Virus record (IMG/VR): IMGVR_UViG_3300011422_000003
Location: 1 to 43,626 of that record
Source of the DNA: a virus
Lineage: Duplodnaviria; Caudoviricetes
Reading direction: 5' to 3' (one strand)
DNA length: 43,626 nucleotides
Every line of letters begins with the position of its first letter. The first letter of the stretch is position 1. The notes below the pieces were generated by a model. It ran no database searches, was not told the DNA's origin, and saw only the letters and a list, made by a program, of their open reading frames with translations. The translations under genes were made by a program, and so were the position numbers. Positions 1-43,626 of the stretch are shown here, piece after piece.

Positions 1-123
1 ATAAAAATAATATGAACTTTTCTTCATTTCCCCCATTTTTCCCCTTTACAAACATCTCAAGAACTCCTATATTTCTATCATCCACTCTGGATAACAGAGA
101 TGGCGGTTGGAGCTTCCGAGAGG
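1..123. repeat. Terminal direct repeat, copy 1 (circularity overlap)
   Basis: Bases 1-123 are identical to 43504-43626. Most simply an assembler overlap from a circular or circularly permuted genome. Confidence 0.95.
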
Positions 124-307
124 GTAGCCCTCTGATACGGGTAAGTGAGCACAGCGTAAAGCTGATTAGTCTTACGGATTATCCCCTACAGAGATTGTGT
201 ACCGGCCCTCTCAGAAGGACAAAGGATAGGAAAACCCCAAAGAGGTTGCTAAGTTCAACCAGGTACCCTGCACCACTTCAAAGTGGTGACTCTGCGGTAA
301 AGCCTGG
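85..307 (+). ncRNA. Candidate structured leader RNA upstream of the early operon
   Basis: Dense nested pairings: 85-89/95-99, 119-124/128-133, 141-145/171-175, 152-155/161-164, 244-248/256-260, 259-263/303-307, 271-278/281-288. No credible ORF. Confidence 0.5.
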
Positions 308-341
308 GCGAGTGCTAGTAATCAAGGCGAGTACAGTATAA

Positions 342-392
342 CCCCTCTGCTAGTGTGTGCTAGCACCGATGATTGCTAAAGCATGAAAGGGG
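342..392 (+). ncRNA. Type III hammerhead ribozyme-like element (variant core)
   Basis: Stem III CCCCU 342-346/AGGGG 388-392; unpaired C347; stem I UGCUAG 348-353/CUAGCA 360-365; core CCGAUGA 366-372; stem II 373-376/381-384; GAAA 385-388. Confidence 0.7.
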
Positions 393-398
393 ATATTT

Positions 399-581
399 AT
401 GAAGTTTGACGATTTGACATTAGGTGATATGTTCACATTTTCTATTCACTCTAAAGAGGTTTGGGAGAAAGTAAGTAGTATACATTGTGTATTATTAAAC
501 TACCCCGATGAAGAGGTAGATGAAGTATATAGTGTTAATCAAACAGTCTACGCTTGTGATGTAGTGAAAGTGAGGGGGTGA
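399..581 (+). CDS. Hypothetical early protein (60 aa)
   Basis: ORF with GGGGA Shine-Dalgarno; first gene of the rightward early block. Confidence 0.75.
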   Translation: MKFDDLTLGDMFTFSIHSKEVWEKVSSIHCVLLNYPDEEVDEVYSVNQTVYACDVVKVRG

Positions 582-584
582 GGT

Positions 585-650
585 ATGTTTTGGTTGCTGG
601 TGCTATTTATCCTTTTCGTTATCTTCTTAAATGTGTTTAAGAGTCAGTAG
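585..650 (+). CDS. Very small hydrophobic membrane peptide (MFWLLVLFILFVIFLNVFKSQ)
   Basis: GAGG SD directly upstream; fills the gap after 399-581; below the ORF-track size cut-off. Confidence 0.5.
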   Translation: MFWLLVLFILFVIFLNVFKSQ

Positions 651-653
651 GTG

Positions 654-674
654 TTTTACCTTTAACGTGTAAAA
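654..674. promoter_or_regulatory. Inverted repeat TTTTAC-N9-GTAAAA (candidate operator)
   Basis: Perfect arms at 654-659/669-674; related copies at 1185, 1782 and 43483. Confidence 0.45.
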
Positions 675-697
675 TGTGAATAAAGGGGAAAAGAGAA

Positions 698-874
698 ATG
701 GGAACAAGTGTAACACAGTGGACTATTGCAGACCTAGCAGAGTACTGTGAGCATTGCATGGTGATTGCGATCAAGGATGATGAGAAGTATTGCGATGAGT
801 GTGCAAGTGAGGTGACAGAATGGCTTGCTGTGAAGTATAGTGAACAAAACGCTGTTGAGAAAGGGTTGTACTGA
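698..874 (+). CDS. Small zinc-ribbon protein (58 aa)
   Basis: Translated by hand: CEHC...CDEC; SD upstream; TGATG coupling to 874. Confidence 0.75.
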   Translation: MGTSVTQWTIADLAEYCEHCMVIAIKDDEKYCDECASEVTEWLAVKYSEQNAVEKGLY

Positions 875-1182
875 TGAAAACACTTGCGCAAGCATTGCTC
901 AATGTGTCAGCAAAGTTGCCAATTGAGGATAAAAAAGTAGCTGATAGACTAGGCAGAGCGTATGATATTGTGGGGCAGCTTGGTAGTGGGTATGACATCG
1001 TAAAGAAGAATAACGGAACGTACAAAGTATACAAAGAGAGCACTTTACTGTTAGAAGATAATAGTGTATACTACGCTATAGTTGATGGCATGTGCAGTTG
1101 CCCCGATGCACCAAGTGCAAGGGGCAATATGTGCAAGCATCGCCTTGCTGTGATGCTCATGGAAGAGATGCAGGCTGAATGA
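874..1182 (+). CDS. SWIM zinc-finger protein
   Basis: CSCPD...CKH motif (CxC...CxH) near the C-terminus. Confidence 0.85.
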   Translation: MKTLAQALLNVSAKLPIEDKKVADRLGRAYDIVGQLGSGYDIVKKNNGTYKVYKESTLLLEDNSVYYAIVDGMCSCPDAPSARGNMCKHRLAVMLMEEMQAE

Positions 1183-1184
1183 CA

Positions 1185-1205
1185 TTTTACCTTGAAAGGG
1201 TAAAG
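1185..1205. promoter_or_regulatory. Second TTTTAC-N9-GTAAA(G) element, overlapping the SD of gene 1208
   Basis: TTTTAC 1185-1190, GTAAAG 1200-1205; can also fold as an RNA hairpin. Confidence 0.45.
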
Positions 1206-1207
1206 CG

Positions 1208-1714
1208 ATGGCGGTAGCAGAGATGAAAGCATTAACAGGGGAAGGGTTTGAGGTACAGGTCGATGAGAGTGGTGTGCGTACACTGTGGTTACAGGTGCAT
1301 ACAAACGGTAGTGCAGTGTATGATCTTGCTGAGATTATGCCTGCTGTGCAAGAGAGGATTGAAAGTGGTAAAATGCCAGCGGGTGTATTGGCAAAGGAAG
1401 TAGGCCGGGTTGTGATGCATACAGAGCAATTGCAAGGGGCATTGTCAACGTTGTTCAAGACGTATGGTAGAATGGTAGGGGATGTAAAGAAGGCAAGTGG
1501 GCCTAGGGTGAGTACAGCGTATAAGGCACGGTTTGCACTGCTTGATGGGATGAAGAATAAGATGTTGAAGGAGTATGCCAGGGATTATATCCCCGATGAA
1601 GTGGATAACTTTATCCTGACTGACAGCGGTGATAGGGAAGCACTTATCCATCGCTTGTGCACTGTGCTGGTTGAGGATGTAGAGGGTGGTGAAGGGGAAA
1701 CAGTAGCAGAATAA
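1208..1714 (+). CDS. Hypothetical protein (168 aa)
   Basis: Long ORF in operon orientation, followed by a terminator. Confidence 0.8.
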   Translation: MAVAEMKALTGEGFEVQVDESGVRTLWLQVHTNGSAVYDLAEIMPAVQERIESGKMPAGVLAKEVGRVVMHTEQLQGALSTLFKTYGRMVGDVKKASGPRVSTAYKARFALLDGMKNKMLKEYARDYIPDEVDNFILTDSGDREALIHRLCTVLVEDVEGGEGETVAE

Positions 1715-1747
1715 TAACGGATTGTGGGGCATTCTGAGCGGTTGTGT

Positions 1748-1785
1748 AAGGGGTTAGGGCATTTTAGCCTAACCCCTTTTCTTTT
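1748..1785 (+). terminator. Intrinsic terminator
   Basis: AAGGGGTTAGG/CCTAACCCCTT stem followed by a T-rich tail. Confidence 0.8.
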
Positions 1786-1802
1786 ACCTTTGTGAGGTCA
1801 CT

Positions 1803-1994
1803 ATGCCAATGGTATCAAATAATATACAAGGTTTCTTTTCTTGTACTATGTGTTGCCACGGTAGAGTGTGGTATAGACTCTCCAGCAAGGATACAAATAA
1901 GGAAAACGTAAAAGAGACTAATTATACTAACGTATACTGTGACATTTGCCGGCAAGCGTATGCTATCAAAGTTGTTATTGAAGAGAGGAAATAA
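1803..1994 (+). CDS. Small zinc-ribbon protein
   Basis: CTMC...CDIC; GAGG SD. Confidence 0.7.
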   Translation: MPMVSNNIQGFFSCTMCCHGRVWYRLSSKDTNKENVKETNYTNVYCDICRQAYAIKVVIEERK

Positions 1995-2000
1995 TAGCCT

Positions 2001-2708
2001 ATGCGTTATGTGAAGATCAGTAAGTTTCTAGAGGAAAAAGAACAGGTTAATTGGTTGGTAGAGGGGTTGTTACCGGATGTAGGGTGGACGCTGTTTTTTG
2101 GCTTAAAGGGTATAGGTAAGACAACATTTGCCATACAACTCTGCGAAGCATTGCAAGCAGGTGCACCTTTCATGGGGAGAAAGACGAAGAAGACTAGGAT
2201 ATTGTTTATACAAGCTGACAGCGTTGCGATGGAGTGGAGGGAGATACTCAAGAGGGTATCACCTAAGAATGAAGGTTTTACTGTTGTTGATGTTCCTGCC
2301 CGTTGCCTTGGTGACAACAACTATGTAGCTACGCTTAAAACGTTTATTGATACAGTCAAACCTGGCTTCATTGTGTGGGATAGCTTGTACAAGCTGGCAA
2401 GTGATGATATTAACAACGCTAAGATACTGCTCAGTATTGAGAAGATGATAGCTATGTGTGACGGTATGCCTTGGATGTTGATACATCACCCTCCCCATGG
2501 GGAGAGTAGAGCCGCTGGCAGCTCATCACTAGGCAACACATGCAGCAATGAATGGTGTCTTCTCGGTAGTAAGCTACGCATCGATAAAAGTCGCTTAACA
2601 GCAGAAAAGGAGTTATTGCTGAAGCGCAATAAAGATAATGGTGGTTTGTGGGAATTGCATCAACATAAGGTGGTAAAAGGTGAGAGTTTTATGGATAGGG
2701 AAATATGA
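2001..2708 (+). CDS. AAA_25/RepA-like RecA-fold ATPase (helicase-like, no primase domain)
   Basis: WLVEGLLP lead-in, Walker A GLKGIGKT, Walker B IVWDSL, LIHH and RAAGSS motifs. Confidence 0.85.
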   Translation: MRYVKISKFLEEKEQVNWLVEGLLPDVGWTLFFGLKGIGKTTFAIQLCEALQAGAPFMGRKTKKTRILFIQADSVAMEWREILKRVSPKNEGFTVVDVPARCLGDNNYVATLKTFIDTVKPGFIVWDSLYKLASDDINNAKILLSIEKMIAMCDGMPWMLIHHPPHGESRAAGSSSLGNTCSNEWCLLGSKLRIDKSRLTAEKELLLKRNKDNGGLWELHQHKVVKGESFMDREI

Positions 2709-3040
2709 AGATGAGAAAAGCACAATACCCCACACAATGTAAAGACTGTGGCAGTGGTGATGTGATACGGGTGTTTGAGAGGCATAGAGAGTTAGAAAAA
2801 AACTACTTCAATGATGTCCTCTGTCCGCCTTGTCTGCAAAGCAGAGCCCAGTTACAAAACATGAAGGAAGATAAGTTACCATTCCACAAGTTACTTGCGA
2901 AGATTAGAGGTGAGATGATGAAGGCCATACATCACATATGTGCTAGTGATAGGTTAAAGAAATACAAAGGCGTCAACCCTTATGCACATGTGAATAACCT
3001 TCCTAACTATTGGATAGAGCAACTTCAAGGGGGGAAATGA
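2705..3040 (+). CDS. Hypothetical protein with CxxC...CxxC
   Basis: CKDC and CPPC; ATGA overlap with upstream gene. Confidence 0.7.
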   Translation: MKMRKAQYPTQCKDCGSGDVIRVFERHRELEKNYFNDVLCPPCLQSRAQLQNMKEDKLPFHKLLAKIRGEMMKAIHHICASDRLKKYKGVNPYAHVNNLPNYWIEQLQGGK

Positions 3041-3210
3041 TGACTGTCGAAGAGTTAATTGAGAAATTAAAACAGTTCGACTTAAAAGAGACTATATACA
3101 GGTATGATGGAGAATATGGTAGGCAATGTATAGAAAGTGTTAGTTATATGCAATGGTACGTTAGTGATGGTTTGAAGTATGAGACTGTAACATCTTTAAC
3201 TATTGAATAA
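3037..3210 (+). CDS. Hypothetical protein
   Basis: Start reassigned to ATG 3037 (ATGA overlap); MTVEELIEKLKQF N-terminus typical of small phage ORFs. Confidence 0.7.
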   Translation: MMTVEELIEKLKQFDLKETIYRYDGEYGRQCIESVSYMQWYVSDGLKYETVTSLTIE

Positions 3211-3224
3211 AGAGAGGGGAAATA

Positions 3225-3425
3225 ATGAAAGAACCGGAAATATCATGCTACGGTGTAAAGCAAGGGATGATAGGGGATGTGAGTGTTATAGAGTATCTCT
3301 TCGCTGTGAATCAGTTACCTATCAGAACAGTGATGTACCTCAATGAAAGGGATGTTAGTCATAACAGTTTGATACAAGAGGCATGTACGTATACGTTCTT
3401 TCACTATATGAATAGAGGTGTGTGA
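3225..3425 (+). CDS. Hypothetical protein
   Basis: SD and operon position. Confidence 0.6.
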   Translation: MKEPEISCYGVKQGMIGDVSVIEYLFAVNQLPIRTVMYLNERDVSHNSLIQEACTYTFFHYMNRGV

Positions 3426-3754
3426 TGGATAGAACGCCAGCAGTGCAATTAACAGAAACAGAAGCTATTGCATTAGCAGAGTCACAATGGTGGAAGGATA
3501 AGGATGCAATAGTAATAGCTGTATTTCAGCTATCGCAAGAGAGGTTATGTGTAGATTTTAGTGATTTTCACAAAGCTGTTGAGTCAGCGTTAGGTAGAAG
3601 TGTGTGGACACATGAGTTTGCCTATCCTGATCTACTGTGGGATGAATTACATGAAAAGAGAGTACCACCTACTTTTAATGATATACTCAATATGTTACCG
3701 ATAGATAAGGTTATAATCATTGAAAGGGAGAATGATGGAAAGAAAGTGGAGTAA
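3422..3754 (+). CDS. Hypothetical phage protein
   Basis: Overlaps both neighbours; LGRSVWTHEF motif resembles a recurrent phage hypothetical family (recalled, not searched). Confidence 0.75.
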   Translation: MMDRTPAVQLTETEAIALAESQWWKDKDAIVIAVFQLSQERLCVDFSDFHKAVESALGRSVWTHEFAYPDLLWDELHEKRVPPTFNDILNMLPIDKVIIIERENDGKKVE

Positions 3755-5165
3755 CTACAGCACAGCTATCTTCTCTCACTTCACTGAGAGTGATGATAAC
3801 CTGATAGTGCAAGCATGCCCTGGTGCTGGTAAGACGACGAACATTGAGCATATATGGGGGCTTGACAACAAACCAACAGTGTACACTGTTTTCAATAAAC
3901 ACAATCAGCTAGAGGCACTTGAAAAGCTTCCTGTTAAGGCTAACAGCGCAGTATTGACACTTAACGGTCTAGGTGCAGGGATTGTCAATGCTACCTTTGG
4001 TAGGGTGACACTTGATAAGTACAAGGTGCCTAACCTCATCAAAGCAATGGCATCATATAAGATGGGGAGGAGTAAAGAGAGTAGAGAGAGGCAGTATATA
4101 CTTGCCAATATGGTCAGCATTGCAAAGTGTATGGACACTGGTGCAGGGTTTAGTGAGGAGATGTATGACAATGCTGTGAGTGTGTATGACATTGAAGAGT
4201 ACCCCTCTCTCTATCAGGAAACTGTAGACATACTAGAACGTAGTGATAACATGACAAACGTCATTGACTTTCAAGATCAGCTACGCTTTCCTGTCATTTA
4301 TGACTGTGTAATGCCGCAGTATCATAATGTGCTTGGAGATGAGGTGCAGGATTTCAATGCTGTGCAAGCGGCGTTGCTGTCAAAGCTGAAAGCACAGCGT
4401 TATGTGTTAGTGGGTGATAGTCACCAGAGTATCTATGGCTTCCGTGGTGCAATGAATAACAGCATGAGTATCCTCAAGGAACAATTCAAATGCACTGAGC
4501 TACCGCTCTCAATCACTTATAGGTGCGCAAAGGGTATTGTGAAGGAGGCAGCAAACGTCTACAAGGATATAGAAGCGTGGAGTGAGAGTCCACAGGGCGT
4601 TGTACGCTACAGCGATGGTGACAACGAACAATACACCAGCGACGATATTATCCTCTGCAGGATGAACAGACCACTCATTGCACTAGCGTATCAACTACTC
4701 AACAACAACACACCATGCCATGTGAGAGGGAGGGATATTGGGGAAGGTTTGGTGAAACTGATCAATAAACAAGGTTGCTTCACTGTACGTGAATTGATAA
4801 CAAGGCTCAATGATGAGTACACTGTGGAGGTAGAGAAGGCGAGAGTAAAAGAAGATGATGATAAGATACCACGTCTACAGGATAAGTATGGTAGTGCGTT
4901 GCTGTTTTGTAATAGAGCAAAGCTAGATGACACACCAGAGATGGTGATTGCTGCTATCAATACGCTGTTTGAGCAGGGGAGAGGCGTATGCCTCAGCACT
5001 GTGCATAAGGCAAAGGGGTTAGAAGCACAACGTGCTTTCATCCTTGACAGTGCATTACATAGCACCTTTACCCAACGTGCAAGGCAACAATGGCAGAGAG
5101 AGCAAGAGAGAAATATATTGTATGTTGCGATAACAAGAGCGAAGGGTGAGTTAGTATATATGTGA
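3732..5165 (+). CDS. UvrD/Rep-like superfamily 1 DNA helicase
   Basis: ACPGAGKT, DEVQD, VGDSHQSIYGFRGA, LSITYRC, STVHKAKGLE, YVAITRAK (motifs I-VI). Start moved to ATG 3732. Confidence 0.95.
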   Translation: MMERKWSNYSTAIFSHFTESDDNLIVQACPGAGKTTNIEHIWGLDNKPTVYTVFNKHNQLEALEKLPVKANSAVLTLNGLGAGIVNATFGRVTLDKYKVPNLIKAMASYKMGRSKESRERQYILANMVSIAKCMDTGAGFSEEMYDNAVSVYDIEEYPSLYQETVDILERSDNMTNVIDFQDQLRFPVIYDCVMPQYHNVLGDEVQDFNAVQAALLSKLKAQRYVLVGDSHQSIYGFRGAMNNSMSILKEQFKCTELPLSITYRCAKGIVKEAANVYKDIEAWSESPQGVVRYSDGDNEQYTSDDIILCRMNRPLIALAYQLLNNNTPCHVRGRDIGEGLVKLINKQGCFTVRELITRLNDEYTVEVEKARVKEDDDKIPRLQDKYGSALLFCNRAKLDDTPEMVIAAINTLFEQGRGVCLSTVHKAKGLEAQRAFILDSALHSTFTQRARQQWQREQERNILYVAITRAKGELVYM

Positions 5166-5440
5166 GGTATATATGTGTGAAGAGTAAAATACACATCTCT
5201 TGTGGCAGTAATACACTTTGTGGTTTATTAAGTAGCAAGGTGAGAGTTACTGCTCATGTAGAAATAGTAACCTGTCAAGAGTGTTATGGGAAGTATATAA
5301 AAGGGGAGTATAAAAGATTCAAATACATACACAATGCTGTTAATGATTATGCCATTATGATGTATAGAGAAGCATTAGAGAGAGGTATTACTATTGAAGA
5401 AAAAGAGAGATTTAGAGTTATGCTGAGGTTAAGCTTTTAA
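5162..5440 (+). CDS. Small zinc-binding protein
   Basis: H...LCG...VTCQEC pattern, also seen in 10303-10494. Confidence 0.65.
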   Translation: MRYICVKSKIHISCGSNTLCGLLSSKVRVTAHVEIVTCQECYGKYIKGEYKRFKYIHNAVNDYAIMMYREALERGITIEEKERFRVMLRLSF

Positions 5441-5465
5441 TGTATATGTAAAGAGGAGATACACT

Positions 5466-5675
5466 GTGAGAGCAAGTTGCTCTGCCTCTTTTGAGATAAC
5501 ACTCAACATGTGTGGTATGTCTTATGATTATTGGTTACTACTCTTTCAAACAAAACATATGGTCAAACGACAAAGGAAAACTATAGAGAAACTCATTAAG
5601 AAAGTGCAAAGGGTACATACGGGTAAAGGATTCTATATTGCAGGTGTATATGTGATGAAAGGGGAGAAGGTATGA
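5466..5675 (+). CDS. Hypothetical protein
   Basis: GAGGAG SD; overlaps next gene. Confidence 0.55.
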   Translation: MRASCSASFEITLNMCGMSYDYWLLLFQTKHMVKRQRKTIEKLIKKVQRVHTGKGFYIAGVYVMKGEKV

Positions 5676-5917
5676 CTGAGAGTGAGAAGGTTATACGTGC
5701 ATTCACACAAGAAACGTGTGCATTTATTACACAGCACTTCCCACAGGGAGAGCACAACCCTGCAGTCATTGCTGCTTACCTGTCAACAGTTATCACTTTG
5801 GTTTGGGAAGGGTTTTGTAAGGATGAAGTGGAGCTCGTTGACACGGTGAGAGCCTTTGCAACGATGCTGCATGCAATGCCAGAAGAGTGTTATTTCAACG
5901 GTGATGAAGAGGGGTGA
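5672..5917 (+). CDS. Hypothetical protein
   Basis: Last gene of the early block. Confidence 0.7.
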   Translation: MTESEKVIRAFTQETCAFITQHFPQGEHNPAVIAAYLSTVITLVWEGFCKDEVELVDTVRAFATMLHAMPEECYFNGDEEG

Positions 5918-5928
5918 AAGAGGGGTGA

Positions 5929-5973
5929 AAGTGACAGTGCTCCATATGTACATATGGGGGAAGTGACAGTGCT
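5929..5973. repeat. 16-bp palindrome flanked by 13-bp direct repeats
   Basis: CCATATGTACATATGG at 5942-5957; AAGTGACAGTGCT at 5929-5941 and 5961-5973. Confidence 0.85.
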
Positions 5974-6013
5974 GCCTTAAAGGGGGGAAGAAGGGGTAAG
6001 TGGTTGAAAAGGA

Positions 6014-6295
6014 AGGTGAGATGGCTTATGTTGGGGGAGAGCATTAGCTCTAGTCCATCTCACCTAATCCCCTTTGTCAGCTACCAAACTGTACTGGAGT
6101 GGAGCAAAGTGGGCTAAGTGTGTGTGACAAGCAGGCATCGTGCAGTTTGTACTGACCTAACCTAGTGCAAGTGAGACCAAAGCGAGGGTGAACTGTACCT
6201 ATGTACACGCTATCAAAGTGAGAGAGTACTGATAGGTACTGGTGGTGCTGTTTGCACTAGTGACCAGATCAGTGCTGTCCAGGGAACCCATAAGC
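6014..6295 (+). ncRNA. Candidate large structured non-coding RNA
   Basis: Pairings 6014-6024/6055-6065, 6085-6094/6140-6149, 6074-6079/6125-6130, 6149-6155/6269-6275, 6162-6170/6252-6260, 6195-6202/6232-6239, 6024-6030/6289-6295. G-U pairs favour the + sense. Confidence 0.55.
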
Positions 6296-6381
6296 TGTCC
6301 CCACTATGCCCCCTCACACCCCCAGTGATCCCTCTCAAACACTCTAAAAATTTCTCCTCACTGCCCTCCACACACTCTCAT

Positions 6382-6410
6382 TTGACACCTTTCCCTGACA
6401 ATGTTACACT
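6382..6410 (+). promoter_or_regulatory. Sigma70-type promoter
   Basis: TTGACA-17 nt-TACACT with extended -10 TG. Confidence 0.85.
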
Positions 6411-6446
6411 CCCCCTACACACCCTTGCACTGAAAGGGCACTGTTC

Positions 6447-6761
6447 ATGAGCACATCCCCACTCTTCATCGTCAATGTCAATCAAGGAGGAGCTGAACTG
6501 ATGGCAACACTTGCTGAAGTAAAAACTGCGGTAGAGGAACTACAAAGTAGTGCACAACTTGTTGAAGACGGCCTTGACACCCTTGTAACCCTCATCACTG
6601 ACCTTCGTGCACAGGTCGCTGCTGGCGGTGGAGTAACTGAAGCACAACTTGATGAAGTAATGAGTGGTATTAATGCAGTGCGTGAACCGCTTGCGGATAG
6701 CCTTGACAAACAAGCTGCTGTGAACACCCCACCCACTCCTGTTGATCCACTCAATCAGTAA
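6447..6761 (+). CDS. Small helical/coiled-coil protein (alternative start ATG 6501)
   Basis: Own promoter; AAGGAGG SD before MATLAEVK at 6501. Confidence 0.8.
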   Translation: MSTSPLFIVNVNQGGAELMATLAEVKTAVEELQSSAQLVEDGLDTLVTLITDLRAQVAAGGGVTEAQLDEVMSGINAVREPLADSLDKQAAVNTPPTPVDPLNQ

Positions 6762-6799
6762 CACACAGTGGGGTAGTACTTGCTACACAGCACAAAGTG

Positions 6800-7012
6800 C
6801 TACCCTCTCTCCTTCACCTCCATAAACCTCTCAAAAGCATACCTAGCTGCACTAATACTTCTCAAGAACTCAGCTAACTCCACAGAGCTGTCAAACGATA
6901 GACAAAGCTGCTCCACTTCACTCAACATCCTTCTAAGCCTCTCCACACTCTCTTTATCACTATAACTCACTGAAACAGCTATCACTGCTCTGTCCACTTT
7001 ACCTCCTATCAT
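6800..7012 (-). CDS. Hypothetical protein
   Basis: Last ORF of the leftward block. Confidence 0.55.
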   Translation of the reverse strand: MIGGKVDRAVIAVSVSYSDKESVERLRRMLSEVEQLCLSFDSSVELAEFLRSISAARYAFERFMEVKERG

Positions 7013-36173: not shown

Positions 36174-37277
36174 TTATGCATATACTTTGATACCTGCAGT
36201 CATCACCAACGAGCGTCCTTCATAGGTAATAGGTCGCTCAATAAGTGATGATAGATGTTCTTTAAATTCTATAACCTGTTGTACTGGATCACTACCAAAG
36301 AAATCCCTCAATACTATTTTTTTAAATGCTAACTTATCGCCGTCATGGGCGTTGTGTAGTAGTCGAACGTAGTTACCGTATCGATCCTCAATAATATTCA
36401 ACGTCTCATTGTTATAGTCACTCACAGTACCGCTTATCATATGGCTGAAGCCTTCTCTGCCTGTTTCAGCACTACTGTCAAAGAAGATACGCCTAAAGCC
36501 ATAAAGAGATCGAGCAACTCTTTCCCTTCTGATTGAAGCCATAATTGCCAGCTTTCTCTTCCACGCACCCCCTTTAGATGCAATATACCGTTTGGCAAGA
36601 CGCTCAAGGTCTTTATAATCAACTCCATATTGTTCTACTCCGTTGATACGATGCACAAACTTATACGACTCAGTATACTTTGCACCATGATTAAAGTTCT
36701 TTGCTAAGACCCGTTGCTTTGTATCCTTTCCTTGCCAGTTATAACGAGTACGCCATTCACTATCCTCCGCTGAAGTGTGAGGGTTCTTGAGGTTAGATGG
36801 ATAGTCCATGTTAAAAATATTACAACAGGTAATTGTATGAAGGTCAAACCCTTCACTGTGAGCAGTGATAGCTTGCTCATCATTAACGATAAGATCATGT
36901 ATCTTCCCCTCTATGTTGTCATGGTCCCATGTTATGAGGATTTCATCATTGTCAGGGAGGAGAATATCACGGATTGACCAGCACTCATCTGTCCACTCAT
37001 GTTCACTACGAGGGCACTCTTGATTCACACACGCTCTAGGCCAGTTTGTTATCCACGTTGACCATCTCCCACTTGTCTGCGTTGGTAAGTGGTGGAGGTA
37101 GAGGCGTTTCACCCCTACCAGTTTATTAACCGTACCAGTTAACAGCTTACTGTCTTCACTGTATGCCAGCCTAAGCTGCGCCAGTTCTATCTGCTTAGAT
37201 GTACTCTTAGGGTTAGCAATAATCTTGCGGAGGGTATCCCTAGCAAGACTTTCCTCTACTGCTGCTTTATAAGGCAT
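36174..37277 (-). CDS. polA: Family A DNA polymerase, C-terminal (palm/fingers) subunit
   Basis: TSGRWST, motif A DHDNIEGK, DLHT, motif B RVLAKNFNHGAKY, SLYGFRR, motif C AHDG. Confidence 0.9.
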   Translation of the reverse strand: MPYKAAVEESLARDTLRKIIANPKSTSKQIELAQLRLAYSEDSKLLTGTVNKLVGVKRLYLHHLPTQTSGRWSTWITNWPRACVNQECPRSEHEWTDECWSIRDILLPDNDEILITWDHDNIEGKIHDLIVNDEQAITAHSEGFDLHTITCCNIFNMDYPSNLKNPHTSAEDSEWRTRYNWQGKDTKQRVLAKNFNHGAKYTESYKFVHRINGVEQYGVDYKDLERLAKRYIASKGGAWKRKLAIMASIRRERVARSLYGFRRIFFDSSAETGREGFSHMISGTVSDYNNETLNIIEDRYGNYVRLLHNAHDGDKLAFKKIVLRDFFGSDPVQQVIEFKEHLSSLIERPITYEGRSLVMTAGIKVYA

Positions 37278-37280
37278 CTC

Positions 37281-37853
37281 TCAACAATCCCTCCTACAAC
37301 CACACCTTCTATCTAAACTCCCACACCATACACAGAATGTATCAATAACATCTAACCTATCGCTATCCCTCTTAAAAGAAGACATTATACCCTTAACAAC
37401 ATACTTCACAAACTCTAAATCTTCATCGTCGATAGGGAGGGTTATAGTTATTGCTTGCATTACTACACCCCACATACAGCAAAAGCTAGTTGATACTTCT
37501 CATTGTAATAAAGCACCTTAGCACCACTGTGGAGTGGATTTTCTTTTATCCTATCCAATAAATCTTGATCTTCCCTCACACTATAATGCTCTATAGATAC
37601 CATACTATCAATCACATCGTAGAGAATAACTGTTATCACTTTAGCCATATAGTTCCTCAACCCTTACTGTAAGTTTCCTATGGTAGTTAAACGGTATATG
37701 ATGCCTATCACCACAGAAGTAATCCCCTACAGCAGAGTGTATCACTGTACCGCGCTTGTACTTACCTTCAGTAACTCTACTTAGTTCATCATGTATCGCT
37801 TCATTTAATGAGCGTAAGGAACCGTTCCAGCATATGTTTATTTCAACCTCCAT
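37281..37853 (-). other. Three small ORFs (37641-37853, 37463-37660, 37281-37475) between the two polymerase genes
   Basis: Overlapping start/stop codons; the last ends in FCVWCGS...CGC. Confidence 0.7.
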
Positions 37854-39330
37854 ACAATTCTTCCCTCATCCTTTTACTCCCCCCTAGCTTAAAGGTACTA
37901 TCCCCTGTTATCTCTTGTGCTCTTTTTTCATACTCTTGTAGACGTTCAATTAATATCCACTTCACATCGTCAAGGCGAGAGGTGTCAAGCAGTGCTCCAC
38001 TTTGTTGAGCTTTGTCAATGATAGGTATAAGGGGTAAGCGGTACTTTTGATACACCGCCCAACTTAATCTATCCCTCTTAAACTCAGGGATGAAGTACCC
38101 CCTCCACTCTTGCATAGGCTCATAGCTGTCAAAAGCGCTGTACGCTTCGGGTTCATCCTCTGGTAGGTGTTTATACCTATTCAGTGTACCATAAATGCTG
38201 TTGATGTAATTAAGAGAGTGCGGCTCACCAGGCCACAGCACAGAATGTGCAAGCATCAAATCCTCAACCTTCACAGCACGCATATCCACCAAATTAGACA
38301 GATAAGCAACATCAGCAAGAGCGTTTTGTATGAGGACAGTTGATCCCTGTCGTACAGGAATAACATTATCACCCCCACTATCATGCTCAACACAGTAGAG
38401 ATTATAAGCTGAGTCACACATACTCCATCGGTATAACTCCTTTGTGTCGGGGTTGTACTCTGTATCGAAGGAGGAATAAGCAGGCCAGTTTTGAGGTGCA
38501 TTGCTACTCCACTGAGGTGGAGGTAAAGGCCACTCACCTCTCAACAACATACCTAACTTATGGAAGTCTTGATAGGTAGCGTGTGTGTACTTCTTATTAT
38601 CACCGTAGTTGAGTGCAGCAATGTGCATGGTGAAAAAGACTACCCTTTTATCCTCCAACAAAGAATGATAGCGAGAGGTATCAACAGTCCTGATAGTGCT
38701 GTAATCCCCCACTTCAACTCCATACCCTCTCCAACTTTCAAGTACCCCCTGTTTCTTCTTATACTCATCTTGATCTTTAGCAAGGCCAGTCATTTGAAAC
38801 ATAGCATGTCTACCCATTGTCACTACAACTTGTACGCTATCAGGGATGTGAAGGTGTGTTGCTTTGCAATGGCGCAGTGCTTTAACTATATCACTCTTTG
38901 TCTTATCATTATCCAAGCGCATACCTGCACTGATCGTGGGTAAATCATCAGCTTCTGCCTGCTGCATACCCTTTACACCAGCAGCCTTCATAGCAAGGGC
39001 TGGTCTACAACGGATGGCATTCCCTACTGACACTTCACTACGCTTCAAACCGCTCTCAGGGAGGAACTTTTTGTTGAAGTCTTGTCCCGTCTTGCCTATA
39101 AGTGGCTGTGACTCCACATCCTTAAACTCATCACTATACACCCCCTTCCCACTAAACCTCCTTCTCACTAACTCCTTCCCTTCAGCTTCATTCCTTCCTG
39201 GGTTTTGAGCAAGAAAAAAAACCTTGCTGCCAGGTACAATATAATCAGGTGTATAGCTGTTAGCAGGATCAAAGCGATAAACATAGAAAGGGCACCCTTC
39301 ACAGCTACTTGGTAGCATCATCGCGTTCAT
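37843..39330 (-). CDS. Family 4-like uracil-DNA glycosylase domain fused to PolA 3'-5' exonuclease and first half of the thumb
   Basis: CEGC, AQNPGRNE, PLIGKTG, NAIRCRP and MHIAAL (UDG); FDTE, QNALAD, DLMLAH and YSAFD (Exo I-III); GALLD...GDSTFKLGGSKRMREELY (thumb). Confidence 0.88.
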   Translation of the reverse strand: MNAMMLPSSCEGCPFYVYRFDPANSYTPDYIVPGSKVFFLAQNPGRNEAEGKELVRRRFSGKGVYSDEFKDVESQPLIGKTGQDFNKKFLPESGLKRSEVSVGNAIRCRPALAMKAAGVKGMQQAEADDLPTISAGMRLDNDKTKSDIVKALRHCKATHLHIPDSVQVVVTMGRHAMFQMTGLAKDQDEYKKKQGVLESWRGYGVEVGDYSTIRTVDTSRYHSLLEDKRVVFFTMHIAALNYGDNKKYTHATYQDFHKLGMLLRGEWPLPPPQWSSNAPQNWPAYSSFDTEYNPDTKELYRWSMCDSAYNLYCVEHDSGGDNVIPVRQGSTVLIQNALADVAYLSNLVDMRAVKVEDLMLAHSVLWPGEPHSLNYINSIYGTLNRYKHLPEDEPEAYSAFDSYEPMQEWRGYFIPEFKRDRLSWAVYQKYRLPLIPIIDKAQQSGALLDTSRLDDVKWILIERLQEYEKRAQEITGDSTFKLGGSKRMREELYGG

Positions 39331-42640: not shown

Positions 42641-42701
42641 TCGCTACGCTCAGTGGGAGAGTGAGGCCCCATGGCTGGGCCTCCCCCTTCGGGGTTCACA
42701 G

Positions 42702-42730
42702 AGTGTATTACTGAAACGCAAAGTCGTCAA
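42702..42730 (-). promoter_or_regulatory. Sigma70-type promoter with no clear downstream gene
   Basis: TTGACG-17 nt-TACACT, firing into hairpins at 42636-42694 and antisense to 42383-42640. Confidence 0.8.
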
Positions 42731-43040
42731 GGTAATTCTGCAGAGCACGATGCACCACTAACGACGTAGAGCACCTCTCTACTATGAATGAAATTCATCA
42801 ATAACTTTTTACTAGTTCTCCTGTTAGGACTAAAAATGAGTAATGGATGTTTGATAGATTTTATCTATAAGGTTTGTAAGGTGTTGAAAAGGAAGGAGAA
42901 AAAAGTTTCAGTGGTGCTGTGTTTTACGCCTGTTTCAACCCGCCGGTGGCTCGGATATGCCTACGGCGTTCGGCCCTTTTAGAACAAGCTCTCAAAGGCT
43001 CCACAATGGCTCACGTTGCCTTTGAGTAACAGTGACTCTC

Positions 43041-43072
43041 CCTGTAAGTGACCTGGCCTGTAAGTGACCTGG
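43041..43072. repeat. Perfect 16-bp tandem duplication
   Basis: CCTGTAAGTGACCTGG x2. Confidence 0.9.
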
Positions 43073-43503
43073 GGGTAATCTGGACAGCTAATAGCCAGAA
43101 AGTCACCGTGCTATACAATTTGCTGGTATCCCCCTTGACCTTTTAGAGGGGTTGAGGGGGGAGTGTGATATGACAAAAAATGATAGCTCCTTCACATCAT
43201 ACCAGTTCAAATCAACCTCTCTCACTTTGACATACTTCTACTCCATCCATTCTACTCCACCCTATCTCTACCTTTCCATTCTATTATTAACTCTACTATC
43301 TTACCTCACTGTAATACTCACTGATATACTTCTATTCTATCTACTTTACTCCACTTTATATCTCTCTATTCTATTATTGACTTGACTATCTTATTTCAAT
43401 CTAGTTCACTTCGCACCTACTACTATGCTCAACCCTTTGTATATAATGTGGTGTAATTGCAAAGATTGTGCCATCTCTACTGTTTTACCCTCATCGCAGT
43501 AAA

Positions 43504-43626
43504 ATAAAAATAATATGAACTTTTCTTCATTTCCCCCATTTTTCCCCTTTACAAACATCTCAAGAACTCCTATATTTCTATCATCCACTCTGGATAACAG
43601 AGATGGCGGTTGGAGCTTCCGAGAGG
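43504..43626. repeat. Terminal direct repeat, copy 2
   Basis: Identical to 1-123. Confidence 0.95.

Follow-up and report, generated by a model that had tools for sequence, protein, structure and literature searches.

A phage family A DNA polymerase cut at the tip of the thumb into two conserved genes

We examined a locus in IMG/VR virus record IMGVR_UViG_3300011422_000003 (Duplodnaviria; Caudoviricetes), in which a family A DNA polymerase (PolA) appears to be encoded by two separate genes. The window, that is, the whole stretch of DNA analysed (43,626 bases), is the entire virus record, has direct terminal repeats and is rated 100% complete; PF00476 (DNA_pol_A) has one match only in this genome. 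On its minus strand, a gene for a uracil-DNA glycosylase (UDG)-exonuclease protein (subunit 1) is followed by a gene for a polymerase (subunit 2), with a gap of 565 nucleotides (nt; 37278-37842) between them that holds three small same-strand open reading frames (ORFs) of about 70, 61 and 59 amino acids (aa). A first-pass annotation had described this layout and proposed a PolA split at the thumb tip; checking the sequence, we found both ORFs in place with their ends and starts as quoted, the gap with its three mini-ORFs, and the AGGAGG (37295-37290) and in-frame stop that had been noted ahead of the second gene. This stop is the TGA of the third small ORF (37283-37281), in frame and 3 nt 5' of the polymerase ATG. 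The two halves carry existing annotations as "uracil-DNA glycosylase" and "hypothetical protein".

Table 1. Features of the two-gene polymerase locus, in window positions.
Feature	Position	Strand	Basis
Subunit 1, 495 aa: family-4-like UDG, DEDDy 3'-5' exonuclease, exo-palm linker, palm start, thumb helices H/H1	37843..39330	-	Pfam, Klenow alignment, AlphaFold2, Foldseek
UDG-like domain, about residues 1-265 (boundaries approximate)	38536..39330	-	columns of 109 homologues; alignment with Sulfolobus family 4 UDG
3'-5' exonuclease domain, about residues 280-420 (boundaries approximate)	38071..38493	-	D289, E291, D340, Y397, D401
Residues 421-495: linker and palm-start helices, thumb helix H (450-475), H1 (485-493)	37846..38070	-	model, Klenow alignment
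TATG overlap: conserved Tyr codon plus next G, giving the ATG of gap gene 1	37851..37854	-	locus comparison
Gap gene 1, 70 aa, without family	37641..37853	-	dN/dS 0.25 against locus L007
Gap gene 2, about 61 aa, with its ATG at 37648	37463..37648	-	without Pfam family; weak match to one PHROG (E 0.03); start placed from an overlap of Shine-Dalgarno (SD) sequence and ATG
Gap gene 3, about 59 aa, Cys-rich end	37281..37460	-	homologues in the gaps of loci L007 and L010
AGGAGG, SD-like site, 12 nt 5' of the polymerase ATG	37290..37295	-	sequence
Subunit 2, 367 aa: short basic N-terminal arm, thumb helices H2/I, palm, fingers	36174..37277	-	Pfam, Foldseek, alignments
Cys/His insert C83, C88, H93, C99, between the R-W-S motif and motif A	36981..37031	-	each residue invariant (105/105); opposite a gap in Pol I
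H197, motif B position B3	36687..36689	-	His in 105/105

Subunit 2 has the Klenow-type palm, fingers and thumb fold of family A. Its Pfam DNA_pol_A match (E 8e-6) lies under the curated cut-off, and AlphaFold2 predicts the chain alone at a predicted local distance difference test score (pLDDT) of 93, with Klenow, Bst and Taq as the top Foldseek matches (E 1e-13, TM about 0.65). It aligns with E. coli Pol I from residue 626, that is, from helix I onward (hhalign probability 95.8). A search for relatives of this half returned 146 among 1,637 candidates of similar length, and we built an alignment of 105 rows from the query and 104 of the 120 relatives listed, after the self hit, near-duplicates and partial or mis-started rows had been dropped by eye. 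In these rows the family A motif residues D118 (Pol I D705), R189, K193, H311 and D312 (D882) are invariant, and Y201 is kept in 101. H197 corresponds to Pol I F762 and Taq F667; the same His is present in three fused close relatives and, by the same automatic alignment, in four distant rows, while distant members mostly have Tyr or Phe. For PolA position 762, the accessible portions of PMC10201439 name Phe, Tyr and Leu only, and we did not find His762 in the literature searched, which included few subscription papers. The Cys/His insert is likely a zinc site. The N-terminal arm of the chain has a basic composition: over the 105 rows, the Lys/Arg fraction is 0.20 and the Asp/Glu fraction 0.05, whereas the remainder of the protein has 0.14 and 0.13. 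A similar bias is seen in 41 distant short proteins.

Subunit 1 joins a UDG to a proofreading exonuclease and to the beginning of a polymerase. It matches Pfam UDG (E 7e-9), is predicted alone at pLDDT 94, and finds a Sulfolobus family 4 UDG as its top Foldseek match (E 9e-8) as well as Pol I. Against Klenow (E 3e-8), its profile covers exonuclease motif III, the linker, the palm start and helices H and H1, and ends at Pol I F591. From 149 relatives among 4,889 candidates, 109 of the 120 listed were aligned (nine partial and two fused rows were dropped). The five exonuclease residues of Table 1 are invariant in all 109 and N336 is kept in 108, so that the Exo I DxE, Exo II NxxxD and Exo III YxxxD motifs of a DEDDy exonuclease are all present. 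The four candidate Fe-S cysteines pointed out in the first-pass annotation (C10, C13, C108 and C155) are indeed kept, in 108, 109, 109 and 109 of the 109 homologues; judged by sequence and model, the domain thus has the fold and the four 4Fe-4S cysteines of family 4. Its predicted pocket is formed by Q42, N43, E48, L77, N104 and H236, among which E48, N104 and H236 (each 108/109) correspond to E47, N80 and the catalytic H155 of family 4 enzymes.

A survey of relatives for the same breakpoint, which had been proposed as a check, shows that the cut is inherited. Among 27 locus rows with both halves, the window and duplicates counted, 26 are split at this site, and the one unsplit row belongs to the distant Manatee Spring phage. 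The thumb-tip split extends to L045 and L050, two distant loci with 31-33% identity. Across 18 less redundant loci the gap ranges from a 35-nt overlap, in which the two ORFs of L026 overlap in different frames, to 995 nt, with all three frames represented; it contains at most four small genes, which are not the same from locus to locus. The protein ends are nevertheless tightly placed: chain 1 ends 1-2 residues past a conserved Tyr in 76 of 109 homologues and at most 6 past it in 97, and chain 2 starts 5-11 residues before a conserved Leu in 98 of 105, with a Met-Pro start in 70. The ratio of nonsynonymous to synonymous substitution rates (dN/dS) is 0.07-0.13 in five of six half-by-relative comparisons, dS being saturated in the sixth. 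Thus the break is inherited and both halves are under purifying selection. A search for longer proteins returned two fused relatives among 2,503 candidates. The earlier suggestion that little or nothing is missing from the thumb holds for length, since the unbroken close relatives P0123 and P0124 have 7 residues between Tyr and Leu (6 before the residue preceding Leu) and the two free ends here comprise 12. It does not hold for sequence: compared with E. coli Pol I, the H1-H2 loop (about residues 592-607) is replaced by two unrelated free ends.

Structure prediction is consistent with reassembly of the two chains. The predicted complex has an ipSAE of 0.86, against 0.01 for the best control (116 of 157 solved complexes, but only 2 of 215 mismatched pairs, reached the mark applied); separate runs share at least 92% of their contacts, and each partner has a pLDDT of at least 84. 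The interface comprises residues 246-253, 359-371 and 420-493 of chain 1, most of it from residues 421-495, and residues 9-70, 84-109 and 256-317 of chain 2, with about 180 confident contacts spread across exonuclease, palm and thumb. The heterodimeric PolA of the first-pass annotation is supported by the conserved two-gene split and, as a prediction, by this model, but the proposed assembly through the two thumb helices is not, as the interface spans linker, palm and exonuclease and its best-predicted contacts (chain 1 422-441 against chain 2 257-262 and 290-306) are in the linker and palm, outside the thumb. Subunit 2 lacks half of the thumb and the start of the palm and is therefore unlikely to work alone; the UDG-exonuclease chain is thus likely to be an obligate subunit and not a detachable one, as had been suggested. 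Taken together, these data make it highly probable that the replicative UDG-exonuclease-PolA of this phage has been cut at the thumb tip and that its two chains fold into one obligate heterodimer, which would likely copy DNA and proofread, and would possibly excise uracil.

Several observations pull the other way. The halves of a split gene tend to pass a complex test by their likeness to solved Pol I structures, so the complex score speaks for compatibility of the chains and not for binding; the 12-nt spacing from AGGAGG to the polymerase ATG is long; and subunit 2 has the unusual His at 762 and a Gly in place of E883 in motif C. We also considered whether the two chains form a loose, exchangeable pair, in which the polymerase chain works alone and the UDG-exonuclease chain binds reversibly, so that the two could be regulated separately or uracil be repaired without the polymerase. 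Both chains are confidently predicted to fold by themselves, chain 1 might be made in excess owing to the gene order and the coupling, and at one locus (L040:1-2342) at least 2.3 kb of small genes, with no UDG-exonuclease gene, precede the polymerase half, in a fetched stretch that starts at the contig end. Such a pair is nonetheless improbable, given the absence of helices H and H1 and the palm start from chain 2, the many contacts over three domains, and the stable complexes formed by split family B polymerases (PolB).

Rejoining of the halves into an ordinary single chain, by a self-splicing intron or a ribosomal hop, is very improbable. Phage PolA genes, such as that of SPO1, can carry group I introns, and an endonuclease-like ORF lies inside the polymerase gene of the distant relative L045; yet gap lengths extend from -35 nt to 995 nt and fall in every one of the three frames, gap-versus-gap BLAST finds similarity between shared small genes only, and L026 has no gap to remove. 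The free ends vary in both length and sequence, and chain 2 has its own Met start. Rfam gave no match at the gathering score (three weak matches, E 0.1-0.9) and the folding z score of the gap RNA is -0.46, so that Rfam, folding and gap comparison revealed neither the structured RNA nor the in-frame splice junctions of a group I or II intron; no intein halves were found at the new termini, where chain 1 ends so close to the Tyr and the arm of chain 2 is short and variable. Splicing of the split gene is thus unlikely. A decayed gene or an assembly error is hardly credible, although the polymerase half does score under its curated Pfam cut-off. At 37270-37860, where read support had been singled out for checking, contigs of runs X1 and X9 cross the whole split region without differences, though either run may be the source of the DNA; run X12, not flagged as a source, covers the region in five pieces with no joint, and a fourth run is patchy. 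Misassembly, named earlier as a possible refutation, is further opposed by the same break in many divergent loci of 31-79% identity. Intact close relatives together with decay here had been named as another: unbroken relatives do exist in P0123 and P0124, but the low dN/dS speaks against decay.

Within the heterodimer reading, the activity of the UDG is a separate matter. We give an active glycosylase roughly an even chance; it is plausible because the domain retains the catalytic His together with the Asn and Glu that bind uracil. Slightly short of even is a variant in which the heterodimer is real and the UDG is catalytically dead, serving DNA binding or processivity in the way suggested for N4-like PolAs, a judgement that covers this point alone. 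Against activity, the EG/EA doublet of family 4 motif 1 (GE(A/G)PG) is replaced by QN (Q in 107/109, N in 96/109), the F54 position is Leu in 108/109, and N89 has no equivalent, with a long insertion at that place. No dUTPase or base-modification gene was seen among about 57 window ORFs scanned, and the relative at locus L055 has a visibly degenerate UDG region. In Tth UDGa, H155 is the most important residue and E41Q alone cuts efficiency about 900-fold, but a polar partner in a QD doublet largely rescues E41Q (PMC5387724). N18 of MUG binds water (PMC5387724). In favour of activity stand the conserved equivalents of H155, N80 and E47 and the four cysteines. The Asn found here at the G42 position, the site of the polar residue that rescued E41Q, corresponds by motif position to N18 of MUG, where the motif is GINPG.

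We then compared the layout of the genes across loci. The conserved Tyr at the end of chain 1 is encoded by TAT followed by G in 17 of 18 loci, some of them close kin and therefore not independent, and the resulting ATG opens an ORF of at least 59 aa; the exception is a locus without a gap gene. Elsewhere in these genes, Tyr is encoded by TAT in 206 of 405 cases. The TATG overlap calls for a codon starting with G and so confines the residue after Tyr to Gly, Asp, Glu or Ala, as found in 102 of 109 proteins. Translation is likely passed on by this coupling through the gap genes to the polymerase gene. Internal promoters and terminators in the region are at chance counts (8 against 9.3, and 2 against 2.3). 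Homologues of gap gene 1 occur at other gap positions in relatives or 3' of the polymerase gene, and because one lies downstream of the polymerase in L001, the gap genes resemble mobile passengers. A Leu/Ser-Tyr-Gly end like that of the UDG-exonuclease gene, through the same SD-TATG overlap, is seen in several of them (window 37641-37660; L007:3344-4026; L019:5485-5769), and microhomology at start signals may drive the insertion of genes into the gap. In L001, the first ten residues of one gap gene (4774-5019) resemble the usual N-terminus of the polymerase subunit, whose own gene there starts at GTG; this gene is possibly an insertion that duplicated the start region. In L037, a NADAR-domain gene (645-1088) is the sole gap gene between the polymerase halves.

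These features suggest how the split enzyme could have arisen and may work. The linker, palm-start helices and helices H and H1 of chain 1 would pack on the palm and helices H2 and I of chain 2. The cut would have landed in an insertion-tolerant surface loop after helix H1, and would have been fixed because the rest of the fold keeps the halves together. A start signal within the last codons of gene 1 would couple translation onward, so that small genes could build up in the gap. The DNA-contacting H1-H2 loop has been lost, and the free basic N-terminal arm of chain 2 may take its place.

To trace the history of the cut, we searched 1.84 billion representatives by profile, with 1,518 matches, 95 of them at 1e-30; the 150 listed and about 20 added rows were labelled split or fused by start position. 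Most distant split labels rest on the N-terminus, and the loci themselves were seen for L040, L045 and L050. A tree on the part after the thumb holds 101 rows (54 split, 47 fused), with rows of unclear start, rows less than 70% filled, two duplicate or fragment rows and seven without the anchor motif left out. All trees were quick, and midpoint-rooted or weakly rooted. One branch with a Shimodaira-Hasegawa-like approximate likelihood ratio (SH-aLRT) support of 100 separates 38 fused rows from the 54 split and 9 fused rows. At least seven changes between split and fused are needed, four of them forced by the starred branches, and a single fission that was never reversed, with all 54 split rows in one clade, is rejected by the approximately unbiased (AU) test (p 1e-93). 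The thumb of the 9 inner fused proteins has 76-87 residues against 91-157 in 35 outer ones (leaving aside two mis-anchored rows of a single protein and two that were not measured), compared with 89 in E. coli and 85 in the window. There was either one old fission followed by re-fusions, or a short-thumb ancestor that was cut repeatedly at the same loop. P0123 and P0124 nest among split rows in three quick trees, but on the UDG-exonuclease half the AU test did not reject a placement of the pair outside the core split group (p 0.61), and the constrained tree scored higher, so that they are not shown to be re-fusions. A second cut site, within this wider lineage, follows thumb helix I. At L055:5242-7735 the upstream gene keeps the whole thumb and the degenerate UDG region and the polymerase gene starts after helix I, and 17 short representatives (P0311, P0330, P0344, P0348 and P0361 among them) start near this site, although some may be fragments.

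Some relatives showed further features. The polymerase-half gene of L045 (934-2382) is interrupted in frame by some 150 additional aa; this insertion overlaps the endonuclease-like ORF (1052-1558, PHROG 5046, E 5e-13) in another frame and is a candidate intron or degenerate intein. P0254, P0260, P0268, P0356 and P0359 are over-long, match the profile in pieces and possibly bear inteins. Genes 3' of the polymerase in L050 (11489-11800 and 9901-10734) and L055 (7748-8644) match a dATP/dGTP pyrophosphohydrolase (PHROG 801) and a "DNA repair exonuclease" (PHROG 7339), neither of which was seen among the window ORFs scanned.

Split polymerases and UDG-PolAs have been published, but we found no thumb-tip cut of a PolA in the literature searched, which included few subscription papers. 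The S-SBP1-like PolA of T7-like cyanophages was split by fission at the exonuclease/polymerase boundary (Czernecki et al. 2023, PMC10201439). Like the window enzyme, it is a family A polymerase in two genes with free new termini and overlapping ORFs, as in L026, and AlphaFold predicts the reassembled enzyme. Its polymerase chain, however, is whole, its genes are adjacent, it has no UDG and it belongs to the T7 cluster, whereas the window polymerase is cut inside the polymerase domain after H1, at Pol I 591, up to four unrelated genes separate the halves in its lineage, and no T7-like record was among the matches at E 1e-5. The UDG-PolAs of SPO1, SP-10, SP-15 and the N4-like cluster 17 are single chains (PMC10201439), in agreement with what the first-pass annotation had said of SPO1-type phages. 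They share the order of a family-4-like UDG, exonuclease and polymerase, and the predicted contact of the UDG with the polymerase part, but differ from the window in being one chain and in UDG motif A (ENP in CP-51 and GEAPG in vir526, QNPG here), and no base-modification genes were found in the window genome. By sequence they are distant (about 22-24%). Neither half matched any SPO1-type phage at E 1e-5; a fused relative reaches these phages at only about 22-23% over the polymerase part, and no clear kinship with the SPO1-type or N4-like clusters emerged from these comparisons.

The split PolB enzymes, T4-like gp43 and phiKZ polymerase, form stable complexes (PMC3061061 and PMC13648687). There, too, two genes, 2 bp to kilobases apart, make one stable enzyme, and the T4-like cuts fall at the tip of a helical hairpin in the fingers; unlike the window case, the fold is that of family B and the cut lies in fingers or palm, not in the thumb. 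RM378 was considered as a split PolA precedent and set aside, since PMC3061061 calls its enzyme a PolB. In phiKMV-like PolAs, about 100 aa are inserted after helix H1 (PMC10201439), at the site of the window cut but within one chain, which indicates that this site tolerates change; the thioredoxin-binding domain of T7 is likewise a thumb insertion within one chain (PMC10201439). The nearest enzyme among 50,697 annotated phages is the PolA of the Manatee Spring podovirus (MW202742.1, UOF81315.1), which shares the UDG-exonuclease-polymerase order, a genome of about 41 kb and an upstream AAA gene with the window, but is unbroken (815 aa), with a long thumb, Tyr at 762 and 26-28% identity.

Whereas the PolA fission found in print separates whole domains, the cut described here goes through the DNA-gripping thumb, and strong selection has maintained it in a deep-branching, common group of phages from soil and groundwater, with more than 100 relatives. 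A deletion of Klenow residues 590-613 at the thumb tip is reported to lower processivity. Split and unbroken natural relatives at about 50% identity offer a ready test of what thumb-tip continuity contributes to processivity and fidelity, and of whether the UDG domains of PolAs are a second editing site. His762 sits at the position used to type viral PolAs, and surveys with polA as a marker would score split genes as fragments. Together with the QN UDG site, the Cys/His insert and repeated cutting or rejoining, this His makes the system a good biochemical target. A fuller picture, which we offer tentatively and consider rather unlikely to hold in all its parts, is that of a widespread lineage whose replicase is a heterodimer with three activities and a thumb left open at its tip. 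In this picture the basic arm would replace the DNA-gripping loop, an active hybrid-QN UDG would edit uracil or a modified pyrimidine during synthesis, His762 in this phage's subgroup would give selectivity outside the Phe/Tyr/Leu classes, and the thumb hinge would have been cut and rejoined several times at two sites.

Lastly, we looked at the genome setting and the possible host. At least half of the words of the region are present in 14 of 24 listed runs, all of them labelled freshwater sediment or groundwater, and 11 of these 14 may themselves be the source of the window DNA. No RNA data set is listed as containing the region, which speaks neither for nor against its expression. The polymerase-half alignment found no locus in genome contigs, and the L040 polymerase half as a query found no viral locus. 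The UDG-exonuclease alignment found one contig, that of L055, in a Nitrospira metagenome-assembled genome; it is too distant and possibly mis-binned, and we make no host call from it. Domain scans of the window ORFs identified no primase; the other genes recognized include terminase, head-tail adaptor, major head and internal virion genes, a UvrD-type helicase and AAA proteins. Across the terminal join, the replication genes lie on the minus strand and the AAA_25 and UvrD helicase genes on the plus strand. At the end of the window, where transcription thus diverges (42650-43626 and 1-6800), a long ORF-poor stretch rich in A+T runs is possibly an origin or promoter region.

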